The notes: generated by a model not told the origin, from the letters alone. Shown: positions 21,251 through 47,185, numbered from the stretch's first letter. The stretch: 64,000 nt of DNA from Promethearchaeota archaeon (GCA_019058445.1 JAHPZA010000010.1:576001-640000), one strand, 5' to 3'. Made by a program: numbers and translations.

Positions 21251-22447
21251 TTATTTCTGGCTATCGACTAATTCTACAAAATGCAGGGCGATTTTCGTAG
21301 CTTTTGCAATAGATTCTCCTGAAAGATTTTCTGGAATATCGTTTACCGTATGCCAATCAGTCGGGGTTCCCTTCTTTGAAATACCAAACATAGTTGCGGC
21401 ATGAAGCCCTTTTCGTGAGAAATTTGCTGCGTCACTACCAGCAAATTTTAAAGGACCAATTTCGACTGGAACTTCTAAGTCGTCCGCTGCTTTTTTAGCT
21501 ATTTGGATCACTTTAGTTGAATGTTTTGCTAAAAACATTGTTTCTGCTGTAGCTAATAAAAAAGAATCTGCACTTAGACACTCCAAATTAAACAACATAG
21601 CTTCGCGATCACTAAGTTCTTGTTTATATTTTGATACAAATCGTTTTGACCCTCTCATATGCTCTTCGCCGGCAAAACTTACAATCCATAATTCCGTTTC
21701 TTTTAGTTTGTTATTGGCAAAATACTTACCACATTCAAGTGCAGCTGCCACAGCTGTTAAATTATCGTTAGCACCCATAACAACTGTATTTGAACGTAAA
21801 AATTTTGCTAAAATTAGTATTAATACACTTCCAATCGCAAATAGTATATATTGAAAGAGATCTATTGACAAAAGCATGCTCTGGGAAAATCCAATAATAA
21901 CAAAGACAGTTTTAACTATTCCCAATATGATATTCAATAAAGCAATAATCAAAACCAGAATTATTAAAATCGCAGATTTGCTACCAAGCTTACTCAATAT
22001 GGGGAATGTGTAAGCTGAATCATGATGACCTGCCAGTAAAACTAAATTTTTGGGAGTTGTTTGGGGTTTAATTTTTCCAATAACATGAAATGACTTTTTT
22101 TTTGGAAAAAGAAAATCAACTACTTCCATTAACAGAATTTGTTGGATAAAAAAGATAGCAATTCCTAAAAATATTAAAACACTCGAAAGAAGAGGAATAA
22201 AAAAGTAGCTTATTACCCCTAAAATATATAATACTGCGGTTACCCAGATCCAATCTAAAAATCCTCCAGGGTGGCATTCAAACTCAAGTCTTTCTACACC
22301 ATCACAAAATGTAGCCATTGTGTCAAAAATAATGTTTCCTGCTTTACTTTCAGCTTCAGAACCTCCTATTCTTGGACCTGCTTCATCACAAATCATTTGA
22401 ATGAACTTCAACATGTCTTTTCCTGATGGATCAATCTTTTCTACCAT
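21251..22447 (-). CDS. M28 family peptidase with transmembrane inserts (paralog)
   Basis: GPRIGG, GHHDS, GANDNLT, GEEH, GSD, WHT..D. Confidence 0.88.
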   Translation of the reverse strand: MVEKIDPSGKDMLKFIQMICDEAGPRIGGSEAESKAGNIIFDTMATFCDGVERLEFECHPGGFLDWIWVTAVLYILGVISYFFIPLLSSVLIFLGIAIFFIQQILLMEVVDFLFPKKKSFHVIGKIKPQTTPKNLVLLAGHHDSAYTFPILSKLGSKSAILIILVLIIALLNIILGIVKTVFVIIGFSQSMLLSIDLFQYILFAIGSVLILILAKFLRSNTVVMGANDNLTAVAAALECGKYFANNKLKETELWIVSFAGEEHMRGSKRFVSKYKQELSDREAMLFNLECLSADSFLLATAETMFLAKHSTKVIQIAKKAADDLEVPVEIGPLKFAGSDAANFSRKGLHAATMFGISKKGTPTDWHTVNDIPENLSGESIAKATKIALHFVELVDSQK

Positions 22448-45050: not shown

Positions 45051-47185
45051 TTAGCCTATTTCAACATCCATCTTCTTACGCTCTTCAAGGAGATCGTCAA
45101 CTACAGATGGATCGGCTAAGGTTGTGACATTTCCAATATCAGTTCCAGATGCGATAGCTTTTAAAATTCGACGCATGATTTTACCGCTTCTGGTTTTTGG
45201 GAGAGCATCGGCAAATTGAACGACATCAGGTTGAAATACTGGTCCTATTTCTTTTCGAACATGATTTTTAATATCTCTCTTCAACTCAACTGATTTATCA
45301 ACGCCTTGCATTAAAGTAACAAAACTCCAAATGGCTTGACCCTTAATTTTGTGGGGAAAAGGAGCTACTGCAGCTTCAGCTACCTTCGGATGACTCACTA
45401 TTGCTGATTCGACTTCCATGGTTCCAATTCGGTGGCCTGAAACCTTAATCACATCATCTAATCTGCCTAAAATCCAATAATAACCATCTTCGTCTCGACG
45501 TGCTCCATCTCCAGTATAGTAACATCCCGGATACCTTTCGAGATAAGTCGATTTGAATCGTTCGGTGTCACCCCACACATCTCTTAACATACCAGGCCAT
45601 GGTTGAGCCATACAAAAATATCCTCCTTCATGGGCTTCAGTTACCTCGTCTCCTTCTAAATCAAAAATTATCGGTTTGATTCCTAAGAATGGTAAGCAAC
45701 ATGAACCTGGTTTTGTGGGTGTAGCGGTCGCTATCGGCGTCATTATAAAGCCCCCCGTTTCTGTTAGCTAATGAGTGCGAATTGCAATCATCTTTTGCCA
45801 GTATGTATCAACGATGGGGCATTTTTCCTTTCCTACAATTCTGTGATACCACGTCCATGCCTCAGGGTTTTTCCCAAACTACGCATAAGTTGCATAATTT
45901 ATTGGTTCCCCTACAGTACCTAAGACGCGGATAGAGCTGAGATCATGTTTATTCACAGGCTCATCACCATATCGCATTAACGCTCTTATTGCCGTCGGAG
46001 CTGTATAAAACTGTGTAACCTTGTGTCGCTCAACAATATCCCAAAAGCGGTCCACATTTCCCCCATATGAAGAAATTTCAATTTTTCCTAAAGAATTAGG
46101 ATTTTTAATTTGTATGACTGGGTATGTAGGCACGCTTTCAAACATAAGTGTTGTAGCGCCATTTGCTAATGGTCCATATACAATATAACTATGTCCGGTA
46201 ATCCAACCTATATTTCAGCTAAGCTAAGCGAGTTGCTTTAACTTTCTGCTGTACAATACCAGACATCGCCATCCTTATAATTAAACACCACTCTATGTGT
46301 AAATGAAGTGTAAAGGATATAACCTGCTGTGGTATGTTTCACCCCTTTAGGTTTACCAGTAGTTCCGCTTGTATATAGGATGAATAAGGTGTCTTCAGAA
46401 TCCATTTCTTCACAATCACAATCCTCATTCATACCATCAATGAAATCATGATACCAGATATCCTTGTTGGTGCTTGGAACTTCATTTCCCGTACGCTTTA
46501 CTATTATAACATGCTCTATGGTAGGTACGTCATCGATAATTTGAGCGACATCTGCCATTTTTGGATAGGTTTTTCCCGCTCTAAAGGTCTCATCGCTAGT
46601 AAACAACAATCTCGAATCAGAATCCTCAATCCTATCTTTTACTGCTTCTTTTGAAAATCCGCCAAATACAATAGAATGAATTATTCCAAGTCGAGCGCAG
46701 GCTAACATAATAATTGCCAATTCAGGCAACATAGGGAGCCAAATGGTGACCCTATCTCCTTTTTTGAGCCCAAATTTTTTCATGCCGTTGGCAACTTTAC
46801 ACACTTCTTTTTTTAGCTCGCTAAATGTGAATTTTCTCACTTCTCCGGGTTCATCAGCCTCCCAGATTAGAGCGGTATGGTCGCCTTTCCCTTTTTTGAT
46901 ATGGCGATCGATACAATTATAGCATACGTTTAATTTTCCGCCAACAAACCATTTTCCGGGAAATAAGTCCGTTTTTTCCCAAACTTTATCGTAAGGTTTG
47001 AACCAGTCTAAAGATTTAGCTTGCTCGCCCCAAAACCCCTCCATATCATCAATACTTTGCTGCCACAGTTTTTTATATTCTTCGAAAGACATCCCGGTCT
47101 TTGCATAATCAGGATTTAAATTAACCGGATTGAAAACACGTGTTTCTGTAAGAATCGATTCCATTTTTTTATCTTCTTCTGACAT
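45051..47185 (-). CDS. acs: Acetyl-CoA synthetase (AMP-forming), 5 exons / 4 putative BHB introns; exons 46246-47185, 46118-46213, 45901-46057, 45794-45870, 45051-45763; spliced product 660 aa
   Basis: [68 protein letters not shown]. Exon sum is 1983 nt (661 codons) with no internal stops after splicing. Confidence 0.9.
45764..45793 (-). other. acs intron 4, 30 nt, BHB-type, contains in-frame UAG
   Basis: mRNA: CU GGCA AA|A GAUGA...UCAUU AGCU AA|C AG; removal gives UGG CAA ACA GAA (WQTETGG). Confidence 0.85.
45871..45900 (-). other. acs intron 3, 30 nt, BHB-type, contains in-frame UAG
   Basis: mRNA: ACCA AU|A AAUUAUGCA-ACUUA-UGCGUAGUU UGGG AA|A; removal gives GEPINPEAW. Confidence 0.85.
46058..46117 (-). 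other. acs intron 2, 60 nt, relaxed BHB-type, in-frame with no stop
   Basis: mRNA: ACCC AG|U CAUA...UAUG GGGG AA|A UGUGG; removal gives CCA GAU GUG GAC CGC (YPDVDRFW). Confidence 0.75.
46214..46245 (-). other. acs intron 1, 32 nt, BHB-type
   Basis: mRNA: UGUA CAGC AG|A ...hairpin... GCUG AA|A UAUA; removal gives GCA GAU AUA GGU UGG (ADIGW). Confidence 0.85.

Follow-up and report, generated by a model that had tools for sequence, protein, structure and literature searches.

Short hairpin inserts in the acetate--CoA ligase gene of a Promethearchaeota archaeon: probable bulge-helix-bulge introns, apparently old and often lost

In a stretch of 64,000 nucleotides from a Promethearchaeota archaeon (GCA_019058445.1, JAHPZA010000010.1:576001-640000; the whole stretch is called the window below), the acs gene, which encodes acetate--CoA ligase (alias acetyl-CoA synthetase), is interrupted by four short inserts, and the locus raises the question of what these inserts are and why they resemble one another. 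A first-pass annotation of the sequence had regarded them as a possible mobile micro-intron family with a common origin and local spread. Comparison with related genomes, where G000 denotes the genome of the window and the other G-numbers its relatives, suggests a different answer: the four inserts are probably archaeal bulge-helix-bulge (BHB) introns of the tRNA type located in a protein-coding mRNA, what they share appears to belong to an entire class of introns, and they themselves look old and often lost.

The coordinates of the gene, its five exons and the inserts are given in Table 1. Profile positions 3-307 of the NCBIfam acetate--CoA ligase models are covered by the first 315 codons, and positions 407-647 by the last 230. 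When read without splicing, the frame ends after 315 amino acids, and its middle part is disrupted by one frameshift and two in-frame TAG codons. In a MAFFT alignment (12 orthologues drawn from its own genus and family), the inserts appear as four exact gaps relative to the uninterrupted 660-amino-acid gene of the congener G002. Joining the exons gives 1983 nt that encode 660 amino acids with zero internal stops; aligned with the intron-less protein of G002, this product shows 94.7% identity and zero gaps. The alignment gaps and the restored frame place the borders exactly where the first-pass annotation had drawn them. The relatives with an acs orthologue are labelled as Promethearchaeota or Promethearchaeia metagenome-assembled genomes (MAGs), which are Lokiarchaeota-type Asgard archaea.

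Table 1. The acs gene, its exons and predicted introns in window coordinates, and the genomes in which each site is filled (↓ marks the point of insertion)
Feature	Position	Strand	Description	Basis or occurrence	Genomes with an insert
acs gene	47185-45051	(-)	acetate--CoA ligase		
acs, five exons	47185-46246, 46213-46118, 46057-45901, 45870-45794, 45763-45051	(-)		NCBIfam matches and spliced frame	
Intron 1 (site 1)	46214-46245	(-)	32 nt, frame-shifting, splits CTA-D↓IGW	absent from 9/12 aligned orthologues	G000, G054, G061, G140
Intron 1 loop	46230-46234	(-)	AACUC	minimum-energy fold	
Intron 1 exon helix strand	46248-46251	(-)	CAGC	partner GCUG at 46216-46219	
Intron 2 (site 2)	46058-46117	(-)	60 nt, in frame, stop-free, splits TYP-D↓VDR	exact gap relative to orthologues	G000, G140
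Intron 2 loop	46092-46095	(-)	UUCU, hairpin UCCUAA/UUAGGA	minimum-energy fold	
Intron 3 (site 3)	45871-45900	(-)	30 nt, in-frame TAG, splits GEPI↓NPEAW		G000, G005, G054, G061, G140
Intron 3 loop	45886-45890	(-)	ACUUA, 9-bp stem	minimum-energy fold	
Intron 4 (site 4)	45764-45793	(-)	30 nt, in-frame TAG, splits YWQ↓TETGG	filled in 10/79 orthologues	ten genomes, three genera
Intron 4 loop	45779-45783	(-)	AAUUC, 9-bp stem closed by invariant C-G	minimum-energy fold	
Intron 4 exon helix strand	45796-45799	(-)	GGCA	partner AGCU at 45766-45769	
Insert four codons past site 2			33 nt		G044, G061
Insert at KVTQ↓FYTAP					G061, G140
Insert at GYFCIQ↓KPWPGM					G140 only

The predicted fold follows one pairing register, in which the four nucleotides at 3-6 nt upstream of the 5' border face their counterparts at the same distance upstream of the 3' border. 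In this register, 3-nt bulges remain that would contain the splice sites, after the second bulge nucleotide, and the interior of the intron forms a hairpin. Intron 1 shows the canonical hBHBh' arrangement, UGUA-[CAGC]-AG↓A ... [GCUG]-AA↓A-UAUA, with 4/4 pairs and both flanking helices. Intron 2 gives a relaxed BHB, [ACCC]AG↓U ... [GGGG]AA↓A, with 3/4 pairs, and intron 3 likewise forms 3/4 pairs, [ACCA]AU↓A being followed by the stem, the loop and then [UGGG]AA↓A. In intron 4, [GGCA]AA↓A is followed by the stem, the loop and [AGCU]AA↓C, and the central helix is weak, consisting of GU, GC and CG pairs and an A-A mismatch. A 4/4 helix is reached in orthologues, at site 2 in G140 and at site 4 in G005 and G054; the site 2 counterpart in G140 is 42 nt long, with the helix ACCC/GGGU and the loop AUCUC. 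Several earlier observations are borne out by this fold: all four inserts end in AA, in the canonical register, and the 3' end of each intron pairs with the upstream exon (CAGC/GCUG, CCC/GGG, CCA/UGG and GGC/GCU for introns 1 to 4), with backing from covariation at site 3. The apical loops proposed for introns 1, 3 and 4 are also recovered; in intron 2, the proposed AATTC lies partly in the stem.

The orthologous introns have changed in a manner that preserves this pairing. At site 1, eight stem pairs are compensatory and the central helix is 100% paired. At site 3, 89% of the cells are paired, compared with 25-54% when the partners are slid, and nine pairs have changed on both sides, including pairs in the exon-intron helix and in the exon-exon outer helix; the exon-intron helix covaries from A-U in G000 to G-C in three genomes and G-U in one. 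At site 4, 88% of the cells are paired, compared with 32-47% for the slid partners, six stem pairs are compensatory, and the hairpin is recovered independently by RNAalifold. Across sites 1, 3 and 4, 88-89% of the cells are paired, compared with 25-54% for slid partners, and none of 500 shuffles (0/500) matched the observed covariation score.

The enzymes expected for such introns are encoded in G000. An EndA catalytic domain (PF01974, 68 bits) is located at G000:C9:770595-770843, in the one EndA-domain gene detected in this genome, and RtcB (PF01139, 574 bits) at C1:114713-116020. Asgard EndA is reported to have the (alpha-beta)2 form with an L1 loop giving broad substrate specificity (PMC5829648), so that relaxed BHB motifs would be accommodated. 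In the proposed mechanism, the last 4 + 2 nt of each intron in the acs transcript would pair with the exon 4-mer located 3-6 nt upstream of the 5' splice site. Both splice sites would thereby come to lie in A-rich bulges of 3 nt that flank a GC-rich helix of 3-4 bp, and the remaining intron would form a hairpin of about 9 bp whose loop has 5 nt. Both bulges would then be cleaved by the tRNA-splicing endonuclease EndA, and RtcB would ligate the exons, by which the codons of the catalytic motifs would be restored. The four introns may accordingly look alike through the requirements of the splicing machinery, or of another reader of the hairpin tip, and not through recent copying. A scan of the window at the Rfam gathering thresholds gave zero matches, including group I or II introns or other curated RNA families, and inserts of 30-60 nt are much too short for group I or II self-splicing introns.

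The resemblance among the acs introns extends to unrelated genes, as was found by a structure-free census in which tblastn was used both ways, with the open reading frames (ORFs) from 2.39 Mb of the congener G009 against G000 and with those of G000 against G009. Inserts with stops or a frameshift were kept, and the borders were refined on the orthologous protein because refinement at the nucleotide level misplaced some sites. The census yielded 13-14 inserts of G000 that are absent from G009 and five inserts of G009 that are absent from G000 (n = 19). In G000, the hosts are acs with four inserts, a thiolase-like gene with two, two AMP-binding paralogues, the EF-2 gene, an aIF2-gamma-like GTPase gene, a GH38 gene and three others. 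The length is 29-32 nt in 18 of the 19 inserts, all four central-helix pairs form in the canonical register in 12/19 compared with 1/19 for a parallel-pairing decoy, and 11/19 have AA↓N as their 3' bulge. Because AA ends and a 3' tail that pairs with the upstream exon also occur in the 15 unrelated mini-introns outside acs, these are properties of the class. The inserts are strongly clustered: a single gene holds four of the roughly 14 introns specific to G000, and the chance that any gene would hold at least four is ~1.6e-8.

Among the other members, one mini-intron lies inside the P-loop GHVDHG↓KTT of the aIF2-gamma-like GTPase gene (G000:C4:384871; L192), another in the EF-2 gene (G000:C10:684147; L190), and one from G009 interrupts the PP-loop SGGL↓DTS in an argininosuccinate-synthase-like gene (C2:55267; L077:15229-15276). 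The two AMP-binding paralogues, 14 kb apart (G000:C6:862901 and G000:C6:877214; L198 and L196), carry unrelated inserts of 30 nt and 29 nt at the homologous codon, LIE↓NPRD and CLV↓DPRN. A shared site between acs intron 2 and these paralogue introns was considered and dropped, since by eye the positions are about seven residues apart. At G000:C4:391545-391585 (L199:246-286, minus strand), a 30-nt insert is built like the mRNA introns, with [UCCG]AA↓A, a 9-bp stem, the loop AUUUA and [CGGG]AA↓C. Its surroundings are GC-richer and show neither a long ORF nor an Rfam match, so that the insert probably interrupts a non-coding RNA gene as an intron. The tRNA genes of G000 seem heavily and non-canonically interrupted, as in other Asgard lineages: ARAGORN called only 23 tRNA genes, 19 of them with 'introns', and with lengths reaching 208 nt. 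A BHB-intron scan of these calls gave 18 candidates compared with 15 decoys. A genome-wide scan for a BHB helix that joins two open frames lacked power, with 41,886 candidates against 41,073 parallel-pairing decoys (57 against 55 after helix filtering), and a census based on paralogues, in which all ORFs of at least 200 amino acids were compared by tblastn with their own genome, returned only a handful of sites.

The apical loops carry a further resemblance. As one possibility, the first-pass annotation had proposed a shared protein-recognition loop, and in the census the loop motif is strongly enriched. Of 55,289 hairpins in the genome background (stem of at least 5 bp, 5-nt loop), 3.3% have A-N-N-U-C loops and 37.5% A-initial loops. 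In the census pentaloops, A-N-N-U-C is found in 6/10, and among those outside acs in 4/7 (P ~4e-5). The acs introns of other genomes show A-N-N-U-C in 8 of 14 distinct pentaloops and an initial A in 13 of them, and in the survey of 79 orthologues all pentaloops (17/17) begin with A. In the site 4 introns of three genera, the loop is invariably closed by a C-G pair and begins with A, and the stem is free to change. The loop bias is real, but it is class-wide and not special to acs, and the proposed constraint gains support for the class as a whole and not as a mark of the acs introns. The A-N-N-U-C bias lies outside the textbook BHB motif and points to a further constraint; a protein that reads the loop is conceivable, and the function of the loop is presumed.

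The first-pass annotation had also placed the introns in the most conserved codons, which applies to half of them. Intron 1 lies at the 95th conservation percentile and intron 4 in an invariant window; introns 2 and 3 are average in the order-level alignment, and the bias within acs is weak, with a joint P of 0.07 for the four sites. In the census, conservation exceeds that of the respective gene in 14/16 informative junction windows (P = 0.002), a result biased by the census itself, which needs alignable flanks and so favours conserved sites. A simpler cause of a conserved-site bias is available in the GC need of the exon helix. The exon strand of the central helix has a GC fraction of 0.53 compared with 0.32 in coding DNA (P ~1e-4), and a GC-rich exon helix in a genome of 30% GC confines usable sites to Gly, Pro, Ala and Trp-type codons, which are frequent in catalytic motifs.

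The sequences of the introns give no sign of recent copying. Shuffles equal the best local alignment within the acs set in 32% of cases (P = 0.32), and the shared TTAGCT, which had been taken as a family signal, is at chance level, since a common substring of at least six nucleotides occurs in 90% of shuffles. The best pair across the whole census scores below the shuffled mean. In blastn searches of the introns against the G000 genome, only self-hits were found below E = 0.1, with no extra copies, MITE-like repeats included. By the Thermoproteales-type criterion, that is, related introns at different positions or in different genes at about 70-80% identity or more, none stood above shuffles. 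When a covariance model (R1) was trained on 17 canonical introns of 30 nt, its own members scored 31-42 bits and held-out members of the class 12-15 bits, the level of noise. A search with this model brought no relatives: the new matches lie in intact ORFs or antisense to them, except one in the probable non-coding RNA gene. Rejected were its best new match in the window (21804-21844, plus strand), which is antisense inside an intact ORF, and two of its three genome matches, which fall within intact ORFs.

The distribution of the inserts likewise points to an old origin. Of the 151 genomes of the order that were searched, 113 have an acs orthologue. Inserts occur in about a dozen genomes, at seven sites and in three genera, and about 85% of the orthologues are without them, including that of the closest relative. 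The largest numbers per gene are six in G140 (L184 / L218) and five in G061. The 33-nt insert of G044 and G061, located after VD (L180, L183), is in frame and stop-free, with a compensated hairpin outside the canonical BHB register, and is a substrate of relaxed form or else an insertion that is translated. The intron sequences track the host lineage, being the same in G051 and G106 and similar between G061 and G073, between G000 and G003, and between G005 and G006, and the stems of introns at the same site are wholly diverged between genera. Such divergence together with the tracking of the host indicates that the introns are old and not recent copies. On the acs tree, intron-bearing alleles are scattered beside intron-less ones, with G000 (four introns) as the sister of G002 (none). 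Other G000 introns also vary in congeners; for example, G002 has one of the two introns in the thiolase-like gene. The simplest reading of these sequence comparisons is that the acs introns were gained anciently and that frequent, precise loss followed. Loss mediated by reverse transcriptase was considered and rejected, because an RVT_1 reverse transcriptase was not found in G000 (92.6% complete) and because the 3'-most common site is the best retained, the reverse of what 3'-primed cDNA conversion would give. The same tree divides the genus of G000 into two clades, G000/G002/G003/G007 and G005/G006/G009, which hints at gene transfer or a taxonomic problem.

Several explanations other than old, class-constrained BHB introns have to be weighed. 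The inserts might not be introns at all, and might instead reflect assembly error, pseudogene decay, programmed frameshifting or read-through, or peptide insertion. Intron 2, being in frame and stop-free, is translatable in principle. However, the same sites are filled in independent MAG assemblies from different studies, the exons are intact and nearly identical to the uninterrupted orthologue, the inserts interrupt catalytic motifs, where they introduce stops or a frameshift, and the changes inside them keep an RNA pairing, not a peptide; this explanation is scarcely credible. It is also quite improbable that introns were inserted recurrently and independently at sites 1, 3 and 4 in three genera on the ground that only those exons form a cleavable BHB. 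This would suit the hairpins at the same site, which are unrelated between genera and conserved only in the parts dictated by exon pairing, as well as the scarcity of suitable sites at 30% GC that follows from the GC-rich exon strands, and the unrelated introns at one codon of the AMP-binding paralogues. On the other hand, the site 4 introns of all three genera have unpaired and loop-closing positions in common, namely a 5' AAAAAU, a 3' AUU and the invariant closing C-G pair with an A after it, none of which is dictated by the exon, and an exact coincidence of three sites in three genera would be improbable by chance.

A mobile micro-intron family, that is, a selfish lineage of 30 nt spreading within and between genes with a conserved loop needed for mobility, is rather unlikely; it could spread, for example, by a route in which excised circular introns would reverse-splice into transcripts that pair with their tails and then be fixed in DNA. 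The uniform length and build across unrelated genes in two genomes, the enriched A-initial and A-N-N-U-C loops, the extreme clustering in acs, the six introns in the acs gene of G140, the fast turnover among congeners and a nested occupancy that matches ordered gains all suit such a family. It is opposed by the lack of any cross-site pair above shuffles in acs or the census, by the blastn searches without extra genomic copies, by the failure of the covariance model to generalise and by the lack of an RVT_1 match in G000 (92.6% complete), as well as by the introns at the same site across genera, which have diverged like neutral sequence and follow the host lineage. Asgard tRNA introns were likewise reported to be without a copying signature in a 2026 preprint (bioRxiv 10.64898/2026.10.13.758758). 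The common origin and local spread proposed by the first-pass annotation thus find no support in the intron similarity, in the searches for copies and relatives or in the age of the orthologues. A wider form of the idea, which we consider unlikely, is that the 29-32 nt Promethearchaeia hairpin introns form one self-propagating class that enters mRNAs, tRNAs and other RNAs through reverse splicing by EndA/RtcB at GC-rich 4-mers, that the A-initial pentaloop is a handle for a factor in spread or circle stability, and that acs is an old hot spot. If this were true, intron gain would be directly testable in the closest prokaryotic relatives of eukaryotes.

The preferred reading, old BHB introns kept alike by the demands of their class, has points against it as well. 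Excision, exon ligation and the cut positions are deduced from sequence. In introns 2-4, only 3/4 central-helix pairs form, although they are GC-rich and in the canonical register, and for the outer part of site 4, RNAalifold favours the invariant exon-exon CUG/CAG over GGCA/NGCU; the central helix of site 4 is the weakest element of the fold. The A-N-N-U-C pattern was set after inspection of the data, and the held-out acs introns share ancestry and hence are not independent. The uniform size and architecture, the loop bias, the presence of up to six introns per gene and the contrast between four introns in G000 and none in G002 would also fit a constrained self-propagating element. Furthermore, the occupancy is nearly nested, with inserts at sites 3 and 4 wherever site 1 is filled and at site 4 wherever site 3 is filled, G044 being the sole exception. 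The nesting and the concentration in one gene are unexplained by random independent loss and keep the propagation model alive.

The closest known system is the cbf5 pre-mRNA intron of Crenarchaeota, besides which no other archaeal pre-mRNA splicing had been confirmed as of 2009 (PMC2738675). It is likewise a short BHB intron that interrupts a catalytic-site codon of a protein gene (Watanabe 2002; Yoshinari 2006; Yokobori 2009, PMC2738675), and it shares with the present case a presumed hetero-oligomeric EndA of broad specificity and lineage-specific loss (PMC2738675). In contrast to cbf5, acs is another gene in another phylum (Asgard), it holds four introns, and up to six in a relative, instead of one, and its introns are uniform 30-nt hairpins with a biased loop, whose splicing is predicted here. 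The transposed BHB tRNA introns of Thermoproteales, as they are presented in the 2026 preprint (Fujishima et al. 2010, via bioRxiv 10.64898/2026.10.13.758758), are also small, protein-less and constrained by the BHB, and mobility has been proposed for them. According to that account, they form sequence families across positions and genes, whereas the acs introns and the other G000 mini-introns do not rise above shuffles. The Asgard tRNA introns of the same preprint come from the same superphylum and presumably depend on the same enzyme; they occupy many independent positions with repeated gain and loss, and no copying route was detected for them. The reports of Asgard introns (bioRxiv 10.64898/2026.10.13.758758 and one further paper) concern tRNA genes only and leave protein-coding introns unmentioned, whereas acs is a protein gene. 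The BHB kind of intron is already known; what is new is the occurrence of several such introns per protein gene in Asgard archaea.

Intron-split genes of the acs kind are mis-annotated as fragments or pseudogenes, and gene calling that allows for introns could make use of the recognisable traits of the class, namely a length of 30 nt, bulges rich in A, an exon helix rich in GC and a pentaloop that begins with A. The filled and empty acs alleles that exist side by side offer a comparative system for the gain, keeping and loss of protein-less introns in the lineage nearest to eukaryotes.

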